From NCBI RefSeq assembly GCF_058153355.1, contig NZ_CM177019.1: DNA of 64,000 nucleotides; one strand, given 5' to 3'. The translations under genes were made by a program, and so were the position numbers. Positions 1 through 63,292 of the stretch are shown piece after piece. Position 1 is the first letter of the stretch. Every line of letters starts with the position of its first letter. Below the pieces are notes generated by a model. It searched no databases. It was given only the letters and a program-made list of their open reading frames with translations, and was not told where the DNA came from.

Positions 1-1
1 G

Positions 2-1915
2 ACCAGCAAAGAGACGATTTTGCCGCTGTTTGGCGCGTTGATTCTGGTCGGTTGCAGTATTTACTCACGCCGCTATTTCACCCGTTTTCTTGAACGTTCG
101 GCGGCGAAAGTCGGCAAAGTGACTCAGGATCACTTCTGGCTGACGTTGCGCACCCTTTTCTGGTCGATTCTCGTCGCATCACCGCTACCGGTGCTGTGGA
201 TGACGCTGGGTTACGGCTTGCGCGAGGCGTGGCCTTATCCGCTGGCGGTCGCAATTGGTGATGGCGTAACGGCCACCGTACCGCTGCTGTGGGTAGTGAT
301 GATTTGCGCCACCTTTGCCCGTCCGAACGGCTTGTTTATCGCTCATTTCGGCTGGCCACGCGAACGGGTTTCCCGTGGGATGCGTTACTACCTGATGAGC
401 ATCGGGCTTATTGTGCCGCTGATTATGGCGCTGATGATGTTCGATAACCTCGACGACCGTGAATTCTCCGGTTCGCTGGGACGGCTTTGTTTTATCCTCA
501 TTTGCGGTGCACTGGCGGTGGTCACCCTCAGCCTGAAAAAGGCCGGGATTCCGTTGTATCTCAACAAAGAAGGCAGCGGCGACAACATTACCAACCATAT
601 GCTGTGGAACATGATGATTGGCGCGCCGTTGGTAGCCATCCTGGCGTCGGCGGTGGGTTATCTGGCAACGGCGCAGGCACTGTTAGCAAGGCTTGAAACC
701 TCAGTTGCCATCTGGTTCCTACTATTAGTGGTTTATCACGTTATCCGCCGCTGGATGCTGATCCAACGCCGCAGGCTGGCGTTTGACCGGGCGAAGCATC
801 GCCGGGCAGAGATGTTAGCGCAGCGTGCGCGTGGCGAAGAGGAAGCGCATCATCACAGTAGCCCGGAAGGGGCAATTGAAGTCGATGAAAGTGAAGTCGA
901 TCTCGATGCCATCAGTGCACAATCCTTGCGGCTGGTGCGCTCAATCCTGATGTTGATCGCCCTACTTTCAGTCATTGTGCTGTGGTCAGAAATCCATTCC
1001 GCTTTCGGCTTCCTCGAAAATATTTCGCTGTGGGATGTCACTTCCACGGTACAGGGCGTGGAAAGCCTGGAGCCGATTACCCTCGGTGCGGTGCTAATTG
1101 CCATTCTGGTGTTTATCATCACCACGCAGCTGGTGCGCAACCTGCCCGCGCTGCTGGAACTGGCGATTTTACAGCACCTCGATTTAACGCCGGGTACCGG
1201 CTACGCCATCACCACCATCACCAAATATCTGCTGATGCTGATTGGCGGGCTGGTCGGCTTCTCAATGATTGGTATTGAGTGGTCGAAATTACAGTGGCTG
1301 GTCGCCGCGCTCGGTGTTGGTCTGGGCTTTGGTTTGCAGGAAATTTTCGCCAACTTTATCTCTGGCCTGATCATCCTGTTCGAAAAACCGATTCGTATTG
1401 GCGATACGGTGACGATCCGCGATCTCACCGGTAGCGTGACGAAAATTAACACCCGCGCCACCACCATCAGCGACTGGGACCGCAAAGAAATTATCGGGCC
1501 GAACAAGGCGTTTATTACCGAGCAGTTTATCAACTGGTCGCTCTCTGACTCGGTCACGCGCGTGGTGTTGACGATTCCGGCCCCTGCCGATGCCAACAGT
1601 GAAGAAGTGACGGAAATCCTGCTCACCGCAGCGCGTCGCTGCTCGCTGGTGATCGACAACCCGGCGCCGGAAGTCTTCCTGGTGGATCTGCAGCAGGGGA
1701 TTCAGATTTTCGAGCTGCGTATTTACGCCGCTGAGATGGGTCACCGTATGCCGCTACGCCATGAGATCCACCAGCTGATTCTGGCAGGATTCCATGCCCA
1801 CGGTATTGATATGCCATTCCCGCCCTTCCAGATGCGTCTGGAAAGCCTCAACGGTAAACAAACGGGGAGAACATTAACTTCTGCGGGCAAAGGTCGTCAG
1901 GCGGGAAGTTTGTAA
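2..1915 (+). CDS. mscM: Miniconductance mechanosensitive channel MscM (YjeP), C-terminal part; 5' end lies outside the window
   Basis: Frame open from window edge to stop at 1913-1915; MscS-type channel core (…GDTVTIRDLTGSVTKINTRATTISDWDRKEIIGPNKAF…); synteny with yjeO/yjeM/epmA. Confidence 0.85.
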   Translation, partial: TSKETILPLFGALILVGCSIYSRRYFTRFLERSAAKVGKVTQDHFWLTLRTLFWSILVASPLPVLWMTLGYGLREAWPYPLAVAIGDGVTATVPLLWVVMICATFARPNGLFIAHFGWPRERVSRGMRYYLMSIGLIVPLIMALMMFDNLDDREFSGSLGRLCFILICGALAVVTLSLKKAGIPLYLNKEGSGDNITNHMLWNMMIGAPLVAILASAVGYLATAQALLARLETSVAIWFLLLVVYHVIRRWMLIQRRRLAFDRAKHRRAEMLAQRARGEEEAHHHSSPEGAIEVDESEVDLDAISAQSLRLVRSILMLIALLSVIVLWSEIHSAFGFLENISLWDVTSTVQGVESLEPITLGAVLIAILVFIITTQLVRNLPALLELAILQHLDLTPGTGYAITTITKYLLMLIGGLVGFSMIGIEWSKLQWLVAALGVGLGFGLQEIFANFISGLIILFEKPIRIGDTVTIRDLTGSVTKINTRATTISDWDRKEIIGPNKAFITEQFINWSLSDSVTRVVLTIPAPADANSEEVTEILLTAARRCSLVIDNPAPEVFLVDLQQGIQIFELRIYAAEMGHRMPLRHEIHQLILAGFHAHGIDMPFPPFQMRLESLNGKQTGRTLTSAGKGRQAGSL

Positions 1916-1945
1916 GGTCTTTGTGGCCGGATGAACCCATCCGGC

Positions 1946-2260
1946 TCACAAGCAAAACTGATAGCGCAGAAAAAACTGCCACAACCAGTAGCCGAAAATA
2001 GCCAGCGCGGTGGCGTACATAAACCAGCCGCGTTTTTTTCGCCACAAAGCGAACCAGAGAAAAGGGAAAAAGAGCGGTAACGTTATTATCACACCGACAT
2101 CGCGAGTATCGTCATCTTCGAGATACATCAAAACATCACAGACGTTGTTAATCCCGCGTCCATCAATCATCCACTCTTTGTCCAGCGCGGAGGTAATGGT
2201 TATCCAGAGGAACGCCACAACAAACCAGATGCAGCACAAGACAAACATGCGCGCACTCAT
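1946..2260 (-). CDS. yjeO: Inner membrane protein YjeO (104 aa)
   Basis: 104-aa hydrophobic ORF MSARMFVLCCIWFVVAFLW…; position between mscM and yjeM. Confidence 0.8.
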   Translation of the reverse strand: MSARMFVLCCIWFVVAFLWITITSALDKEWMIDGRGINNVCDVLMYLEDDDTRDVGVIITLPLFFPFLWFALWRKKRGWFMYATALAIFGYWLWQFFLRYQFCL

Positions 2261-2357
2261 GAGATAATCGGTCGCTTAATTTCGCTATAGCGCATACGAA
2301 ATCCCGCTAATTCCCTGTCATTGCGCCCTATCGTCAGGCAGACGATAGGGCATCGGG

Positions 2358-3860
2358 TTATTCCACCGCCCACTGCGGATTTTTTGCCACTCTGCTGCAA
2401 TAGTTCTGGTAAATCGCCATCGCTAACAGCGAGAAGAAGACAGGGCCGCCAATCATCCACAATGTGCTGTCCCAGTCTCCGGCTTCAACCACAGGTTGAA
2501 TGATGGTGAAGACGTTCGCAAATGTCACCACCAGTACGACAACCACCGTCGCAATCATTGCCGACATACGCGTTTTGAAAATCACAAACGGTCTGTCGAG
2601 ATCCTGACGTGCTTTAAAGAATGGGAAAGCCAGCGCGAGGAACAAGTAAGGAAGCGTCATAGACACGTTCGCCATCAGCGTCAGCTTGTTAAAGAACGCC
2701 GATGCGGTACCGCCACCAAACGAAACCAGCAGGATGAAGACAGTAACCAACCCGCACTGCATCCACATCGCGATAGATGGCATGCCCATCGCATTCAGCC
2801 GCGTCATCGGTTCCGGCCACAACGCTTTCGGCGTCCCCTGGATGATAGCTTTCAACGGTGAATAGCAAAGCGTAAAGAACGCGCCAGTGTAAGCGAGGAA
2901 CATCGAAAGCCCGGTAATACGCGCAAACCATACACCCAGCGACAATGACGCTTCAGGTGACAAATGCAATGCGTTACCCAGCGTCAACCCGAGGCTCTTC
3001 ATCAGCACATAGGTAATATTGCCGAGGTTAACGGAACCATTACTTAATACCTGCTGCCAGTTTGTGCTGACGCCCCATAAAAATATTGCCAGCGAATAAC
3101 CGATTGAAATAACAATAGCGGCAAAAACAATACCTTTGGCAAAGTTCTTTTCTGGATTTTCCGTTTTATCGACCAGACCACCCACCGCTTCAATTCCGCC
3201 ATAGGCAAAAATGGCAAATACCACAAACGATAGCATCGCCAGACCGGATTGATATCCAGGGTTCGGTGATGCAAGGAAATTAATATCCTGCGCGAAATGC
3301 CCACCGTTTAATAACAAAATAGCAATGCTTACTAACAGCAATACTAAATTAAGACACATTACTGCAATACCGCCCACCGCAGTAATACGGGCAATTTTAT
3401 TAATCCCTTTTGAAGCAACGACGGTGACCAGAATCATCCATGCCACTGCCAGCAGACCAACTACCTGCGTAGGCTCCAGTCCGGCAATACGCCAGTGCTG
3501 GGTCATGTCGCTTCCATAGAGGAATGTTGAGAACGGTACCCAAACTTTAGCGGAGGTGCTCACCATCCAGATGATATAAGAGGAAAACCACATAAACGTA
3601 CCAATGAAGGCAAAACGTGGTCCGACACTATTATTCATCCAGGAATAGATACCGCCTTCTTCTTTGCGATACGCAGCGCCCATTTCAGCCATCATTAAGG
3701 CGAATGGAATAAAGAATAACAATGCAGAAAATATATAAAAGGGAATCGCACTATAACCCATTAAGTAATAAGCCGATGGGCTATTGGCAAATCCAAATAC
3801 GGAAGTAAAGATCATCAATATGAGTCCTATCAGACTCATCTTTTTTATCGTGTGAGGCAT
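2358..3860 (-). CDS. yjeM: APC-family inner membrane transporter YjeM (500 aa)
   Basis: ORF-track frame 2358..3902 trimmed to the Met preceded by AAGGA (MPHTIKKMSLIGLILM…); polytopic membrane protein. Confidence 0.85.
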   Translation of the reverse strand: MPHTIKKMSLIGLILMIFTSVFGFANSPSAYYLMGYSAIPFYIFSALLFFIPFALMMAEMGAAYRKEEGGIYSWMNNSVGPRFAFIGTFMWFSSYIIWMVSTSAKVWVPFSTFLYGSDMTQHWRIAGLEPTQVVGLLAVAWMILVTVVASKGINKIARITAVGGIAVMCLNLVLLLVSIAILLLNGGHFAQDINFLASPNPGYQSGLAMLSFVVFAIFAYGGIEAVGGLVDKTENPEKNFAKGIVFAAIVISIGYSLAIFLWGVSTNWQQVLSNGSVNLGNITYVLMKSLGLTLGNALHLSPEASLSLGVWFARITGLSMFLAYTGAFFTLCYSPLKAIIQGTPKALWPEPMTRLNAMGMPSIAMWMQCGLVTVFILLVSFGGGTASAFFNKLTLMANVSMTLPYLFLALAFPFFKARQDLDRPFVIFKTRMSAMIATVVVVLVVTFANVFTIIQPVVEAGDWDSTLWMIGGPVFFSLLAMAIYQNYCSRVAKNPQWAVE

Positions 3861-9976: not shown

Positions 9977-10510
9977 ATGCGCCTGCTCCCTCTCGTTGCC
10001 GCAGCGACAGCTGCATTTCTGGTCGTTGCCTGCAGTTCTCCTACGCCGCCGCGTGGCGTGACAGTAGTGAATAATTTCGACGCCAAACGTTATCTCGGTA
10101 CCTGGTATGAGATTGCCCGTTTTGATCACCGCTTTGAACGTGGACTGGAAAAAGTCACCGCAACATACAGTCTGCGGGATGATGGCGGCCTGAATGTCAT
10201 TAATAAAGGCTATAATCCTGACAGAGAAATGTGGCAGCAGAGTGAAGGGAAAGCGTACTTTACCGGCGCACCAACTCGCGCTGCGCTGAAAGTGTCATTC
10301 TTTGGCCCTTTCTATGGCGGCTATAACGTCATTGCACTTGATCGGGAATACCGCCATGCGCTGGTTTGCGGCCCGGACCGCGACTACCTGTGGATACTCT
10401 CCCGCACGCCAACCATTTCTGACGAAGTGAAACAGGAGATGCTGGCAGTCGCGACCCGGGAAGGGTTTGATGTCAGTAAGTTTATTTGGGTACAGCAGCC
10501 CGGTAGTTAG
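9977..10510 (+). CDS. blc: Outer membrane lipoprotein Blc (bacterial lipocalin)
   Basis: 177-aa ORF with lipobox LVVAC|SS and lipocalin signature …[24 protein letters not shown]…. Confidence 0.95.
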
Positions 10511-10824
10511 TGAGTGCTGAGTTTCAGACCAATAATCCCCAATACGATTAACGCCAGGCTCGCCAGGCGCATCGGGTTAGCGGACTCACCGAGCAGCACA
10601 ATACCGGTGATGGCCGCGCCGACTGCGCCAATACCCGTCCACACGGCATAAGCCGTCCCTACCGGTAGCGATTTCATCGCCCAGGCAAGTAGCGCCATAC
10701 TGACAATCATCGCCGTCACGGTAATAACACTTGGCGTCAAACGACTAAAGCCGTGGGTATATTTCAGGCCAACGGCCCATACCACTTCCAGCAGGCCAGC
10801 AATAACTAAGATAATCCAGGACAT
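10507..10824 (-). CDS. gdx: SMR-family guanidinium exporter Gdx (SugE), 105 aa
   Basis: [26 protein letters not shown]… four-TM SMR protein; ORF-track frame trimmed to this Met. Confidence 0.93.
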
Positions 10825-10998
10825 ATCAGGCTCCGGAGAATTGGGGCCGTCCCCGGTGAAAAGAGGCGTTTGCAGGTCGTCCTGCAAAGCTGATGGTTGA
10901 ACGGGTATTTTGCCAGGTGGCAGGGGAATTTCAACTATTACCTTAGTGACTATCGCAAAAAAACAAACGGCACGACACAGCTGTCGTACCGTTATTGC

Positions 10999-11145
10999 TT
11001 ACTGCTGCGCTTTCGTTGCTGCGCCAGAAATCGCGTTACCGCCATCAGAAATGTCTTCACCAACGCCACGCGTGGTGTTGCAAGCAGTTAATACTGTTGA
11101 AAGCACCAGAACAGAAAAGATCGCTGCAATTGTCTTCTTCACCAT
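10999..11145 (-). CDS. ecnB: Entericidin B lipoprotein (48 aa)
   Basis: Hand-translated minus-strand [51 protein letters not shown]; lipobox LTAC; below the ORF-track size cutoff. Confidence 0.9.
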
Positions 11146-11255
11146 AACGTCTTCCTTTTAGGTAATGTTATTTATGTTTGCCTATAGCAAATTAATAATA
11201 GACAACATCGCCAAAAATGACGGAAATCTGATGATTTTTCGGAAGAGAAGAAAAA

Positions 11256-11381
11256 CTAGCTGGCAGCGCGGGAGATTGAGTTGCCGAGATGTTTGATATC
11301 TTCGCCGAAACCGCGAGCGGTATTACAGCCCGTGAGCAGCGTGCTGGCAAGCAAAACAAGAACGATAAGGCGTTTCATCAT
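11256..11381 (-). CDS. ecnA: Entericidin A lipoprotein (41 aa)
   Basis: Hand-translated minus-strand [44 protein letters not shown]; lipobox LTGC; paralogous to ecnB. Confidence 0.9.
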
Positions 11382-11432
11382 CTCTGACCAGAATAAGTGA
11401 TGGTGCAGCCAACAGGCCGCACCAAAACCGCA

Positions 11433-11999
11433 TTACTTCACGCGAGAGACGTATTCACCAGAGCGGGTATCCACTTTGATGACTTCTCCGATCTGTACGA
11501 ACAGCGGAACTTTAACCACTGCACCAGTAGACAGGGTAGCCGGTTTGCCGCCAGTACCTGCGGTATCCCCTTTCAGGCCTGGATCGGTATCAACGATTTC
11601 CAGTTCAACAAAGTTCGGCGGAGTAACGGAGATCGGCTGACCATTCCACAGAGTTACGATACACTCTGCCTGATCCAGCAACCATTTGGCGTTGTCGCCA
11701 ATTGCTTTTGCATCAGCAGACAGTTGCTCGAAAGTTTCGTTGTTCATGAAGTGCCAGAACTCACCGTCGTTGTACAGGTAAGTCAGGTTCATATCGACAA
11801 CATCAGCGCCTTCAGCGGAATCAGTAGATTTGAAGGTTTTTTCTACGCGAGTACCGGTCAGCAGACGACGCAGTTTAACGCGAGCAAATGCCTGGCCTTT
11901 ACCCGGTTTTACGAATTCACTCGCTTCAACCGCGTAAGGTTCGCCGTCTAACATGATTTTAAGACCAGCACGAAAATCGTTGCTATAGTACGTTGCCAT
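11433..11999 (-). CDS. efp: Translation elongation factor P
   Basis: 188-aa [45 protein letters not shown]… including the modified-lysine loop KPGKGQA. Confidence 0.97.
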
Positions 12000-12040
12000 A
12001 AGGCCCTCTGAAATTTGTTAATTGGTAGCTAAGCCACAAA

Positions 12041-13069
12041 ATGGCGCATATTGTAACCCTAAATACCCCATCCAGAGAAGATTGGTTAACGCAACTTGCC
12101 GATGTTGTGACCGATCCTGATGAACTTCTGCGTCTTTTGAATATAGACGCGGACGAAAAACTGTTGGCCGGACGCAGCGCCAAAAAGCTGTTTGCCCTGC
12201 GTGTGCCCCGCTCATTTATCGATCGCATGGAGAAAGGCAATCCGGACGATCCACTTTTGCGTCAGGTACTTACCTCGCAAGATGAGTTTGTCGTCGCGCC
12301 CGGATTCTCCACCGACCCGCTGGAAGAACAGCACAGCGTAGTGCCAGGTTTGTTGCATAAATACCACAACCGGGTGCTTTTGCTGGTCAAAGGCGGCTGC
12401 GCGGTAAATTGCCGCTATTGCTTTCGTCGCCATTTCCCGTATGCCGAAAATCAGGGCAACAAGCGTAACTGGCAGACTGCACTTGAGTATGTTGCTGCGC
12501 ATCCGGAACTGGACGAGATGATTTTCTCCGGCGGCGATCCGCTGATGGCGAAAGATCACGAGCTGGACTGGTTGCTTACACAACTGGAAGCCATCCCGCA
12601 TATCAAACGTCTGCGGATTCACAGCCGTCTGCCGATTGTGATCCCGGCACGCATCACAGATGCGCTGGTTGAACGCTTTTCACATTCTACGCTGCAAATC
12701 TTGCTGGTGAATCACATCAACCATGCCAATGAGGTAGATGAAACATTCCGCCAGGCGATGGCTAAGTTGCGCCGGGTAGGCGTTACTTTGCTGAACCAGA
12801 GCGTTCTGTTACGTGGTGTGAATGATAACGCACAAACGCTGGCAAACCTGAGTAATGCGTTGTTCGATGCGGGCGTGATGCCGTATTACCTGCATGTGCT
12901 CGATAAAGTACAGGGCGCGGCGCATTTTATGGTGAGTGATGACGAAGCACGGCAGATTATGCGTGAGCTGCTGACGCTGGTATCTGGATATATGGTGCCG
13001 AAACTGGCGCGCGAGATTGGCGGCGAACCCAGTAAAACGCCACTGGATCTCCAGCTACGTCAGCAGTAA
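12041..13069 (+). CDS. epmB: EF-P beta-lysylation protein EpmB (lysine 2,3-aminomutase-like radical SAM enzyme)
   Basis: 342-aa ORF; radical-SAM motif CAVNCRYCFRR; divergent from efp. Confidence 0.95.
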   Translation: MAHIVTLNTPSREDWLTQLADVVTDPDELLRLLNIDADEKLLAGRSAKKLFALRVPRSFIDRMEKGNPDDPLLRQVLTSQDEFVVAPGFSTDPLEEQHSVVPGLLHKYHNRVLLLVKGGCAVNCRYCFRRHFPYAENQGNKRNWQTALEYVAAHPELDEMIFSGGDPLMAKDHELDWLLTQLEAIPHIKRLRIHSRLPIVIPARITDALVERFSHSTLQILLVNHINHANEVDETFRQAMAKLRRVGVTLLNQSVLLRGVNDNAQTLANLSNALFDAGVMPYYLHVLDKVQGAAHFMVSDDEARQIMRELLTLVSGYMVPKLAREIGGEPSKTPLDLQLRQQ

Positions 13070-34317: not shown

Positions 34318-34423
34318 CTAAAAGAGAGAAAAAAGTAATGCCACAGGCAGGCTCATTGGCCAGGTTATTCCGACCAGGAATGCACTAAGTAAACGAATAT
34401 GTGTTTTCTCATGTGAGATAAAC
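34318..34423 (-). pseudogene. ghoT: ghoT 3' fragment (codons ~24-57 plus stop) separated from its 5' part by the IS66-family insertion
   Basis: Minus-strand translation …SHEKTHIRLLSAFLVGITWPMSLPVALLFSLF* continues in frame from the fragment at 36893-36968 once the IS and one copy of the 8-bp duplication are removed. Confidence 0.85.
34416..34423. repeat. Target-site duplication AGATAAAC (left copy) of the IS66-family insertion
   Basis: Identical 8-mer directly flanks both ends of the element (34416-34423 and 36893-36900). Confidence 0.9.
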
Positions 34424-34498
34424 GTAAGCGTCTTATCAGGACCGTCTGGCAAATTCCCGATGCTTTGGACAAAGTATCCACCACTAAATTAATAGTGG

Positions 34499-34927
34499 GT
34501 GATAAAAATGTCAGATATACAAAAAAATGCCTCTCCGGGAAGGCCTAAAGGGTGCCTGAATTATCCTCCTGAATTCAAACAACGACTCATAGAAGCATCA
34601 TTCCAGCCAGGTGTTTCAATTTCCAGACTGGCCCTGGACAATGGTATTAATGCCAATCTGTTGTTCAAATGGCGTCAGAAATGGCGGCAGGGGAAGATAA
34701 AATTGCCATCATCAGAATCAGGCAGAGAATCTCAGTTAATTCCTGTCACTATTGATGCCCAACTCCCAACTGCTCCGGCTAATGAGCCACTGACCGCAAG
34801 ACCGTCAGTAACACCGGAAATACACAGCATCTCCTGTGAGATTACGTTCAGAAACGGCACCCTTCGGTTGAACGGGGCAGTGAATGAAAATCTGCTGTCC
34901 TTGCTTATACAGGAGCTGAGACGGTGA
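34499..34927 (+). CDS. tnpA: IS66-family accessory protein TnpA (OrfA)
   Basis: 142-aa ORF MIKMSDIQKNASPGRPKGCLNYPPEFKQRLIEASFQPGVSISRLALDNGINANLLFKWRQKWRQG… (HTH-like); the true start may be the Met at 34508. Confidence 0.85.
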   Translation: MIKMSDIQKNASPGRPKGCLNYPPEFKQRLIEASFQPGVSISRLALDNGINANLLFKWRQKWRQGKIKLPSSESGRESQLIPVTIDAQLPTAPANEPLTARPSVTPEIHSISCEITFRNGTLRLNGAVNENLLSLLIQELRR

Positions 34928-35271
34928 TATCTCTCCCTGCAGGTTCGCGTATCTGGCTGGTTGCAGGTATCACCGATATGCGAAATGGCTTTAACGGCCT
35001 GGCCTCAAAAGTTCAGAACGTCCTGAAGGATGACCCGTTCTCCGGGCATCTGTTCATCTTCCGCGGACGCCGGGGTGACCAGATAAAAGTGTTGTGGGCT
35101 GACAGTGACGGACTGTGCCTCTTCACCAGACGCCTGGAGCGGGGCCGCTTCGTCTGGCCGGTCACCCGTGACGGCAAGGTGCACCTTACTCCGGCCCAGT
35201 TATCCATGCTTCTTGAGGGCATCGACTGGAAACACCCGAAACGAACGGAACGCGCTGGCATCCGCATATAA
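34924..35271 (+). CDS. tnpB: IS66-family TnpB (OrfB)
   Basis: 115-aa ORF MISLPAGSRIWLVAGITDMRNGFNGLASKVQNVLKDDPFSGHLFIFRGRRGDQIKVLWADSDGLCLF…; GTG start overlapping tnpA stop by 4 bp. Confidence 0.85.
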   Translation: MISLPAGSRIWLVAGITDMRNGFNGLASKVQNVLKDDPFSGHLFIFRGRRGDQIKVLWADSDGLCLFTRRLERGRFVWPVTRDGKVHLTPAQLSMLLEGIDWKHPKRTERAGIRI

Positions 35272-35290
35272 CCCGTTGTAAAGTGAGGAT

Positions 35291-36862
35291 ATGGACACCT
35301 CACTTGCTCATGAGAATGCCCGCCTGCGGGCACTGTTGCAGACGCAACAGGACACCATCCGCCAGATGGCGAAATACAACCGCCTGCTCTCACAGCGGGT
35401 GGCGGCTTATGCTTCCGAAATCAACCGGCTGAAGGCGCTGGTTGCAAAACTGCAGCGCATGCAGTTCGGTAAAAGCTCAGAAAAACTTCGTGCAAAAACC
35501 GAACGGCAGATACAGGAAGCACAGGAGCGAATCAGCGCTCTTCAGGAAGAAATGGCGGAAACGCTGGGTGAGCAATATGACCCGGTACTGCCATCTCCCC
35601 TGCGCCAGTCTTCAGCCCGTAAACCGTTACCTGCCTCACTTCCCCGTGAAACCCGGGTCATCCGTCCGGAAGAGGAATGCTGCCCGGCCTGTGGTGGCGA
35701 ACTCAGTTCTCTGGGATGTGATGTGTCAGAGCAACTGGAGCTTATCAGCAGCGCCTTTAAGGTTATCGAAACACAACGTCCGAAACTGGCCTGTTGCCGG
35801 TGCGACCATATCGTGCAGGCTCCGGTGCCTTCAAAACCCATTGCACGCAGTTATGCCGGAGCGGGGCTTCTGGCCCATGTTGTCGCTGGAAAATATGCAG
35901 ACCATCTGCCGTTATACCGCCAGTCAGAAATATACCGTCGTCAGGGCGTGGAGCTGAGCCGTGCCACACTGGGGCGCTGGACAGGTGCTGTTGCTGAACT
36001 GCTGGAACCGCTGTATGACATCCTGCGCCAGTATGTGCTGATGCCCGGTAAAGTCCATGCCGATGATATCCCCGTTCCGGTCCAGGAGCCGGGCAGCGGT
36101 AAAACAAGGACTGCCCGGCTGTGGGTCTACGTTCGTGATGACCGTAACGCCGGTTCGGAAATGCCTCCGGCGGTCTGGTTCGCGTACAGCCCGGACCGGA
36201 AAGGTATCCATCCACAGAATCATCTGGCCGGTTACAGCGGAGTGCTTCAGGCCGATGCTTACGGTGGTTACCGGGCGTTGTACGAATCCGGCAGAATAAC
36301 GGAAGCCGCATGTATGGCTCATGCCCGGAGAAAAATCCACGATGTGCATGCAAGAGTGCCCACCGACATCACCACGGAAGCCCTGCAGCGTATCGGTGAA
36401 CTGTATGCCATCGAGGCAGAGGTCCGGGGCTGTTCAGCAGAACAGCGTCTGGCGGCAAGAAAAGCCAGAGCCGCGCCACTGATGCAGTCACTGTATGACT
36501 GGATACAGCAACAGATGAAAACACTGTCGCGTCACTCGGACACGGCAAAAGCGTTCGCATACCTGCTGAAACAGTGGGATGCACTGAACGTGTACTGCAG
36601 TAATGGCTGGGTGGAAATCGACAACAACATCGCAGAGAACGCCTTACGGGGAGTGGCCGTAGGCCGGAAAAACTGGCTCTTCGCGGGTTCTGACAGCGGT
36701 GGTGAACATGCTGCGGTGTTGTACTCGCTGATCGGCACATGCCGTCTGAACAATGTGGAGCCAGAAAAGTGGCTGCGTTACGTCATTGAACATATCCAGG
36801 ACTGGCCGGCAAACCGGGTACGCGATCTGTTGCCCTGGAAAGTTGATCTGAGCTCTCAGTAA
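35291..36862 (+). CDS. tnpC: IS66-family DDE transposase TnpC
   Basis: 523-aa ORF with N-terminal coiled-coil/leucine-zipper region, Cys pairs CPACGG…CCRCDH and a DDE-type core. Confidence 0.88.
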
Positions 36863-36892
36863 ATATCAATACGGTTCTGGCGAGCCGCTTAC

Positions 36893-36900
36893 AGATAAAC
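36893..36900. repeat. Target-site duplication AGATAAAC (right copy) of the IS66-family insertion
   Basis: Identical to 34416-34423. Confidence 0.9.
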
Positions 36901-36968
36901 CAGATAATGACAAAGTATATGTTCACACCAATCACATAAAAAATTAATATTTTAGAGAATAGTGCCAT
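36893..36968 (-). pseudogene. ghoT: ghoT 5' fragment (start codon plus about 25 codons) truncated by the IS66-family insertion
   Basis: Minus-strand ATG at 36966-36968; MALFSKILIFYVIGVNIYFVIIWFI then reads straight into the IS right inverted repeat. Confidence 0.85.
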
Positions 36969-54958: not shown

Positions 54959-56050
54959 ATGCGTTTTCTGCGCCGACCAATATCGCTGCGCCAACGGCTG
55001 ATATTGACCATCGGGGCCATTTTGTTGGTGTTTGAGCTGATCAGCGTCTTCTGGCTATGGCATGAAAGTACCGAGCAGATTCAGCTGTTTGAGCAGGCGC
55101 TACGCGACAATCGTAACAACGATCGCCACATCATGCGTGAGATCCGCGAGGCGGTCGCCAGCCTGATTGTCCCTGGCGTCTTTATGGTCAGCCTGACGCT
55201 ATTTATCTGCTATCAGGCGGTACGCCGCATCACCCGCCCGCTGGCGGAGCTGCAAAAAGAGCTGGAAGCGCGCACCGCCGACAACTTAACGCCCATTGCC
55301 ATTCACAGCGCCACCCTCGAAATCGAAGCGGTGGTTTCAGCGTTAAACGATCTGGTCAGTCGCCTGACCAACACGCTGGATAACGAAAGGTTGTTTACCG
55401 CTGACGTCGCGCACGAACTGCGAACGCCACTGGCGGGGGTGCGTTTGCATCTGGAACTGCTGGCGAAAACGCATCACATTGATGTAGCACCGTTAGTGGC
55501 ACGACTTGATCAGATGATGGAGAGTGTCTCCCAGCTACTGCAACTGGCGCGTGCCGGACAGTCATTTTCTTCCGGTAATTATCAACATGTAAAACTGCTG
55601 GAAGATGTCATTCTCCCCTCGTATGACGAACTCAGTACCATGCTCGACCAGCGCCAGCAAACCCTGCTATTGCCAGAGAGCGCCGCCGACATCACCGTTC
55701 AGGGTGATGCAACCCTGCTGCGGATGTTATTGCGAAACCTGGTAGAAAACGCCCATCGTTACAGCCCGCAAGGCAGCAACATTATGATTAAGCTGCAAGA
55801 CGATGGCGGAGCGGTCATGGCCGTTGAAGATGAAGGGCCGGGTATTGATGAGAGTAAATGTGGAGAGTTGAGTAAAGCGTTTGTACGAATGGACAGCCGT
55901 TATGGCGGGATTGGTCTGGGGTTAAGTATTGTCAGCCGCATTACACAGTTGCATCACGGGCAGTTTTTCCTGCAAAACCGGCAAGAGACTTCTGGCACAC
56001 GGGCCTGGATACGGCTGAAAAAAGATCAGTACGTGGCAAACCAGATATAA
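54959..56050 (+). CDS. basS: Sensor histidine kinase BasS (PmrB), 363 aa
   Basis: MRFLRRPISLRQRLILTIGAILLVFELISVFWLWHES…; H-box ADVAHELRTPL; the ORF track used an upstream TTG. Confidence 0.95.
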   Translation: MRFLRRPISLRQRLILTIGAILLVFELISVFWLWHESTEQIQLFEQALRDNRNNDRHIMREIREAVASLIVPGVFMVSLTLFICYQAVRRITRPLAELQKELEARTADNLTPIAIHSATLEIEAVVSALNDLVSRLTNTLDNERLFTADVAHELRTPLAGVRLHLELLAKTHHIDVAPLVARLDQMMESVSQLLQLARAGQSFSSGNYQHVKLLEDVILPSYDELSTMLDQRQQTLLLPESAADITVQGDATLLRMLLRNLVENAHRYSPQGSNIMIKLQDDGGAVMAVEDEGPGIDESKCGELSKAFVRMDSRYGGIGLGLSIVSRITQLHHGQFFLQNRQETSGTRAWIRLKKDQYVANQI

Positions 56051-56115
56051 AGAAAGCTGCTGACCACCAGCACGCTGAACACGGTAGTTAAACTTTCATA
56101 AACACGGTTTTTCAT
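56026..56115 (-). CDS. pmrR: Small membrane peptide PmrR (29 aa), antisense to and overlapping the basS 3' end
   Basis: Hand-translated minus-strand ORF MKNRVYESLTTVFSVLVVSSFLYIWFATY*; strong RBS GGAGGAG 7 nt upstream; PmrA box just upstream. Confidence 0.8.
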   Translation of the reverse strand: MKNRVYESLTTVFSVLVVSSFLYIWFATY

Positions 56116-61865: not shown

Positions 61866-63170
<1,305 letters not shown>

Positions 63171-63200
63171 CATGCCTGCAATCTGGGAAACCGGGGTAGA

Positions 63201-63292
<92 letters not shown>

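Follow-up and report, generated by a model that had tools for sequence, protein, structure and literature searches.

Two tandem, very small lipoprotein genes below an open reading frame size cutoff, very probably the chromosomal entericidin locus ecnAB of Escherichia coli

Type I systems such as hok/sok combine a small envelope-damaging membrane peptide with a neighboring neutralizing gene, and an arrangement of the same kind has been proposed for the entericidin genes ecnA and ecnB. The 1998 study of Bishop and coworkers reportedly also described plasmid maintenance by post-segregational killing. In the summary of that work given in PMC7296081, overproduction of EcnB is bacteriolytic and ecnA expressed in cis counteracts this effect (Bishop et al. 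1998). Both genes have been known since their description in 1998, and standard pipelines annotate them in virtually all E. coli genomes. "Toxin/antidote" is the accepted annotation of the pair, but the functional claim behind it comes from one 1998 overexpression study and was questioned later (PMC7296081, PMC12529367). EcnB itself is among the most commonly detected small proteins and has been seen repeatedly by mass spectrometry (PMC12529367).

The locus described here lies in a 64,000-nucleotide stretch of DNA (the window, whose first letter is position 1). Enumeration of the open reading frames (ORFs) down to 20 amino acids (aa) in positions 10300-12300 recovered two tandem minus-strand frames of 41 codons (ecnA; 11256..11381, with an alternative start at the second ATG, 11378) and 48 codons (ecnB; 10999..11145), exactly where the original prediction had placed an entericidin pair. 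The identification with EcnA and EcnB that it had proposed is borne out by the family models. EcnA scores 114.9 bits against the NCBIfam equivalog NF007319 ("lipoprotein antitoxin entericidin A"; cutoff, 86) over its full length (1-41 of 41), and EcnB scores 121.9 bits against the equivalog NF007487 ("lipoprotein toxin entericidin B"; cutoff, 94), likewise over its full length (1-48 of 48). The cross-scores are low (EcnB on NF007319, 46.5 bits; EcnA on NF007487, 44.5 bits). Both peptides also pass the gathering threshold (23.3) of the Pfam Entericidin model PF08085, with 26.4 bits for EcnA (residues 21-40) and 30.2 bits for EcnB (residues 24-43), and both contain the core CNT(A/T)RG(F/V)GEDI, as had been written of them. 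Aligned with each other, they are identical at 24 of 44 positions (55%; E = 4e-14) and are therefore tandem paralogues. Their sequences match exactly those of RefSeq proteins WP_000977757.1 and WP_000239596.1, annotated as ecnA and ecnB in the closest E. coli genome (NZ_AP027764.1; 99.3% identity), whose annotated ecnB and ecnA map exactly onto window positions 10999-11145 and 11256-11381. The identity of the two genes is essentially certain, and we regard it as highly probable that the locus as a whole is the chromosomal entericidin locus ecnAB of E. coli, with its tandem paralogues, each encoding a very small lipoprotein.

The lipobox that had been claimed for each peptide was recovered with the pattern [LVI][ASTVI][GAS]C. 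In EcnA an 18-aa signal peptide leads to the lipobox LTGC, with Cys19 as the first residue of a 23-aa mature peptide; in EcnB a 21-aa signal peptide leads to LTAC, with Cys22 as the first residue of a 27-aa mature peptide. The n-region of each carries two basic residues, and the h-regions have mean Kyte-Doolittle values of 2.8 (EcnA) and 2.6 (EcnB). The lipobox and its Cys are kept in Salmonella and Klebsiella. Scores against the Pfam lipoprotein-attachment model LPAM_1 are 16.4 bits (EcnA) and 10.8 bits (EcnB), against a cutoff of 20. In UniProt the lipidation of EcnB at C22 is a curator's assertion, and top-down mass spectrometry did not detect the intact protein (PMC12529367). By established lipoprotein biology, the precursors would be exported by Sec and processed by Lgt, LspA, and Lnt, with a lipid placed on the lipobox Cys and cleavage by signal peptidase II, and the Lol pathway would then deliver EcnA and EcnB to the outer membrane. 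Sorting to the outer membrane by Lol is predicted because residue +2 is Asn, not Asp, in both peptides. The products would be lipid-anchored amphipathic peptides of 23 (EcnA) and 27 (EcnB) residues. Their hydrophobic moments at 100 degrees are 0.62 for EcnA and 0.43 for EcnB, values matched by 0 and 1 of 5,000 shuffles, respectively, so that the mature peptides, if helical, are calculated to be significantly amphipathic.

The 110-bp spacer between the two genes (11146..11255, minus strand) probably holds the control region of ecnB. In a within-species alignment of seven genomes (the window and six E. coli genomes sampled across the ranking), only 2 of its 110 columns vary; for comparison, 7 to 9.5% of the columns vary in the efp 3' end, the efp-ecnA spacer, and ecnA. 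Conservation suggests an extended -10 element of the sigma-S type at 11202-11195 (minus strand), with the sequence TCTATTAT; the segment TTGTCTAT..TTA is kept in both Salmonella and Klebsiella. The element is conserved in Salmonella and reads TCTATGCTT in Klebsiella. This is the sigma-S extended -10 consensus. A good Shine-Dalgarno match, AAGGAAG, stands at 11157-11151 (minus strand), upstream of the ecnB start.

The literature on the ecnB promoter agrees with the assignment of the spacer as its control region. Sigma-38 RNA polymerase transcribes from it, sigma-70 only faintly. Soon after initiation the polymerase pauses at +17/+18, owing to a -10-like motif in the initially transcribed region, and this pause site overlaps the site of the repressor OmpR. 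Through RpoS, expression goes up in stationary-phase cells at high osmolarity, and OmpR represses it (PMC5389655). EcnB levels are also higher in a clpP mutant, which agrees with control by RpoS (PMC12529367). We placed the ecnB transcription start and the OmpR site on window coordinates from the text of PMC5389655 together with conservation. The putative pause element, TGCTATAGG at 11189-11181 (minus strand), fits the published motif, and the candidate transcription start (+1) was therefore put near 11187 on the same strand. An A/T-rich stretch of ACAT repeats at about 11180-11161 (minus strand) is the expected place of the published OmpR site. In the mechanism that we propose, ecnB would be transcribed from its own sigma-S-dependent promoter in the conserved spacer up to a strong terminator, with OmpR repressing the gene and the small RNA MicA repressing its mRNA, as described in the literature.

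This intrinsic terminator, 3' of ecnB (10956..10993, minus strand), has a 12-bp stem, a 4-nt loop, and a T-run (in the terminator scan, 12 pairs followed by TGTTTTTTTG), and the surrounding 49-nt segment folds at -20.5 kcal/mol. Among the aligned E. coli strains its two variable sites, 10980 and 10978, both fall in the loop, leaving the stem invariant. A second, G+C-rich hairpin (11401..11424, minus strand), with a 10-bp stem, a 4-nt loop, and no U-tract, stands between the efp stop and the ecnA start; the surrounding 51-nt segment folds at -22.5 kcal/mol, and the variable sites 11412 and 11411 again lie in the loop. It probably acts as a partial terminator or as a stabilizer of the efp mRNA, and ecnA would then probably be transcribed by read-through or from another promoter. 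A search of the minus strand in 11380-12100 found no sigma-70-like promoter for ecnA.

MicA lowers ecnB mRNA in E. coli (PMC3551931), and RNAduplex predicts a pairing site for the MicA 5' end over the ecnB start codon and first 10 codons (11114..11144, minus strand). With the MicA sequence verified by Rfam model RF00078 (83.9 bits) and by its position between luxS and gshA, MicA nucleotides 1-28 pair with ecnB 11144-11114 at a computed -24.2 kcal/mol; 500 shuffled targets gave -12.2 ± 2.7, and 1 of the 500 reached the observed value. The exact pairing is a prediction.

A 701-bp query covering the locus matched 5,425 of 5,426 complete E. coli genomes, the locus being flanked in every case by sugE and efp, and the features annotated under the matches are sugE, ecnB, ecnA, and efp. 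The order sugE-ecnB-ecnA-efp-epmB is common to E. coli, Salmonella, and Klebsiella. The locus belongs to the core genome and is not mobile. Strain IAI39 carries an IS1 copy within the ecnA-ecnB spacer (2814-3511 of the extracted IAI39 locus), and both genes are intact; ecnB can therefore be retained when it is physically separated from ecnA and its promoter region is disturbed. We also considered a plasmid-borne or mobile entericidin module and rejected it: none of the 13 matches labeled "plasmid" supports a mobile toxin-antitoxin cassette, most of them being records of 0.37 to 5.4 Mb that resemble mislabeled chromosome pieces. One match, on the conjugative IncHI2A megaplasmid pPJT1-452kb of Salmonella sp., lies in a block of chromosomal type (1-3421) with a lipocalin gene, sugE, a gene for a LuxR-type regulator, ecnB, ecnA, efp, and epmB, which suggests a captured chromosomal segment or a misassembly.

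What the two lipoproteins do is less firmly established than what they are. In the model that we favor, EcnB at high dose would be a membrane-active amphipathic lipopeptide, and its paralogue EcnA would neutralize it in the membrane, either by mixing with it or as a competitor. We give the toxin/antidote mechanism only about an even chance of being physiologically real, because cells survive the deletion of ecnA, a family member is nonlytic, EcnB is abundant, and the two intact genes are split by IS1 in IAI39. The ecnA deletion is present in the Keio collection, where the deletion of a true antitoxin should not be obtainable, and the entericidin-family protein Atu8019 causes neither lysis nor disruption of liposomes (PMC7296081); in minimal medium, a cell contains about 70,000 copies of EcnB and is not killed (PMC12529367).

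The main alternative, a substantial possibility if a little on the doubtful side of even, is that ecnA and ecnB are not a cellular toxin-antitoxin pair at all. In this reading they would encode envelope lipoproteins that are abundant, induced by stress, and controlled by sigma-S, OmpR, and MicA/sigma-E; their role would be structural, vesicle related, or at the surface, and the lysis would be an artifact of an overloaded lipoprotein pathway or membrane. The viable deletion and the EcnB copy number just cited speak for such a role, as does Atu8019, a lipoprotein of the surface and of outer membrane vesicles (OMVs) that has no lytic activity (PMC7296081). The very strong purifying selection on EcnB across genera, with the mature peptide identical in E. 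coli and Klebsiella, fits a housekeeping envelope component better than an addiction toxin, and the core, nonmobile nature of the locus points the same way. Set against this are the plasmid maintenance mentioned at the outset, the lysis by EcnB, and its neutralization in cis by ecnA (Bishop et al. 1998, as reported through PMC7296081), together with a secreted EcnB homologue of Enterobacter C6-6 that, in the citation given in PMC7296081, is bacteriolytic to Flavobacterium. The calculated amphipathicity of both mature peptides also tells against this reading, since it is what membrane-active peptides should have.

A more specific form of the envelope-lipoprotein interpretation would make "entericidin" a misnomer in E. 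coli. EcnB would be a very abundant, extremely conserved, sigma-S/MicA-controlled envelope lipopeptide with a positive role, and EcnA a modulator of it, not an antidote. We advance this tentatively, as possible though on balance rather doubtful, and extend the same reserve to its combined particulars, namely, that the role of EcnB might be, for example, membrane or vesicle remodeling in stationary phase and that EcnA is the faster-evolving paralogue. It fits because mature EcnB is near-invariant across genera, the locus is core and nonmobile, and the pair is split by IS1, with both genes intact, in one strain.

It is improbable that EcnB is mainly an exported, bacteriocin-like peptide directed against competitors, with EcnA as the immunity protein of the producer. 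The secreted EcnB homologue, a 3-kDa product of Enterobacter sp. C6-6 for which PMC7296081 cites reported activity against Flavobacterium psychrophilum (Schubiger et al. 2015), favors such a use, and a small toxin gene beside a paralogous protector might be seen to resemble bacteriocin/immunity pairs. The locus, however, holds no gene for export or release, its neighbors being sugE, efp, and epmB; the lipid anchor should keep EcnB in the envelope; and ecnB is universal and nearly invariant in the species and would therefore give no advantage against close relatives.

The weakest alternative denies that the two frames are genes. Short ORFs are frequent here (35 of at least 20 aa in 2 kb), and length by itself is therefore no proof of a gene; moreover, two plus-strand ORFs over ecnB, of 64 aa (10897..11091) and 83 aa (10910..11161), exceed the proposed genes in length. 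The reality of the two frames rests on the family scores given above and on the pattern of substitutions. Among the seven aligned E. coli genomes, 14 of the 15 variable coding sites fall at codon position 3 of the minus-strand frames (11 of 12 in ecnA and all 3 in ecnB), the sole exception, Thr/Ala, being in the signal peptide of EcnA. Between genera, ecnB shows 19 to 23 synonymous codon differences against 2 to 6 amino acid changes (Salmonella and Klebsiella), with 46 of 48 EcnB residues in Salmonella and 44 of 48 in Klebsiella identical to those of E. coli, and the mature EcnB of E. coli and Klebsiella is identical despite 23 synonymous codon changes. Substitutions are almost confined to third codon positions, and both frames are therefore under purifying selection. 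That they are chance ORFs of an intergenic gap, or that the true gene is one of the longer plus-strand ORFs, is extremely improbable, being ruled out by the family scores above the curated cutoffs, by the third-position pattern in the minus-strand frames, and by the antisense ORFs having no Pfam match, with the detection of EcnB peptides by mass spectrometry (PMC12529367) counting further against it. A structured RNA in place of the genes was also considered and rejected; an Rfam scan of 10400-12100 (E up to 1) returned only a guanidine-II riboswitch, which lies outside ecnAB.

The ORF list on which the original prediction drew has a cutoff of 60 aa, and its contention that real genes are hidden by this cutoff holds for ecnA (41 aa) and ecnB (48 aa) and also for pmrR (29 aa) and a split ghoT (57 aa). 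One detail departs from its statement that the gap has no listed ORF: a mechanical list of ORFs of at least 60 aa includes there the two plus-strand ORFs antisense to ecnB, which are best treated as spurious. The cutoff hides real, expressed genes and lists spurious antisense ORFs, and the locus is useful as a control for such scans. As a discovery its value is small, and the physiological standing of the toxin/antidote label is a matter for the family, not for this window. The size of the gap depends on the gene start that is used: it is 545 bp from the over-extended sugE ORF and 608 bp from the annotated sugE start (10824) to the efp stop (11433). The mechanical sugE ORF (10507..10887, 126 aa) runs through the guanidine-II riboswitch, and the annotated start gives a protein of 105 aa. 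The riboswitch (mini-ykkC, Rfam RF01068; 10842-10888, minus strand) scores 50.4 bits against a gathering threshold of 32 and is directly upstream of sugE/gdx.

Other features of the window were recorded in passing. The annotated pmrR gene ("LpxT activity modulator PmrR"; 56026-56115, minus strand) is intact and overlaps the pmrB 3' end. The gene for the 57-aa type V toxin, ghoT, is split by the insertion of a 2.47-kb IS66-family element (about 34423-36893), its 5' part lying in the minus-strand ORF 36783..36968 and its 3' part ending at 34321. The element has ORFs of 142, 115, and 523 aa (Pfam HTH_Tnp_1, TnpB_IS66, and DDE_Tnp_IS66); its first ~500 bp are unlike the ISCro1-like copies that match the remainder, and at least 80% of it in one piece was found in none of the 5,426 complete E. 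coli genomes. Relative to the closest genome, the window also has a 1.28-kb insertion (about 61948-63227) encoding a 326-aa IS110-family transposase (62141..63121, plus strand; Pfam DEDD_Tnp_IS110 and Transposase_20). Matching copies, of which there are up to 28 per genome, are annotated as "IS110-like element IS621 family transposase." About 276 bp of the closest genome near the yjeN/yjeM junction is absent from the window, at about 2295-2395.

Compared with the described E. coli ecnAB (Bishop et al. 1998; EcnB, UniProt P0ADB7), the locus has the same protein sequences, the same position between sugE and efp, the same 110-bp spacer, and the same terminator, and it shows no substantial difference, carrying a few synonymous and loop-position changes. 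Its DNA is about 97% identical to that of most E. coli strains and 99.4% identical to that of strain 2017-02-2CC. The ecnAB loci of Salmonella and Klebsiella keep the EcnA core CNTARG(F/V)GEDI, the lipobox, and the -10 region of the ecnB promoter. The Salmonella locus has, between sugE and ecnB, an extra gene of the LuxR family (usually called ecnR) that the window lacks. EcnA is the more divergent in these comparisons with the window: that of Salmonella has 3 additional residues and 8 differences in 41 aligned positions, and that of Klebsiella has 2 additional residues and 13 differences in 40.

Beyond these loci, Atu8019 of Agrobacterium tumefaciens is, like EcnA and EcnB, a small (53-aa) lipoprotein with a lipobox and an entericidin domain, and we set it beside them by description; unlike them it is the product of a single gene, and it is reported to be surface exposed, associated with OMVs, involved in vesicle docking, and nonlytic (PMC7296081). 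Among toxin-antitoxin systems, the type V ghoST system, whose toxin gene is present in the same window, likewise has a small membrane-directed peptide that damages the envelope when overproduced and a neighboring neutralizing gene. EcnB differs from toxins of the ghoST and hok/sok kinds in that it is predicted to be exported by Sec and lipid anchored on the periplasmic side, where those insert into the cytoplasmic membrane. The antidote proposed for ecnAB is a paralogous protein, as opposed to the antisense RNA or RNase of the small membrane-toxin systems, and the locus is a core one, not a mobile one.
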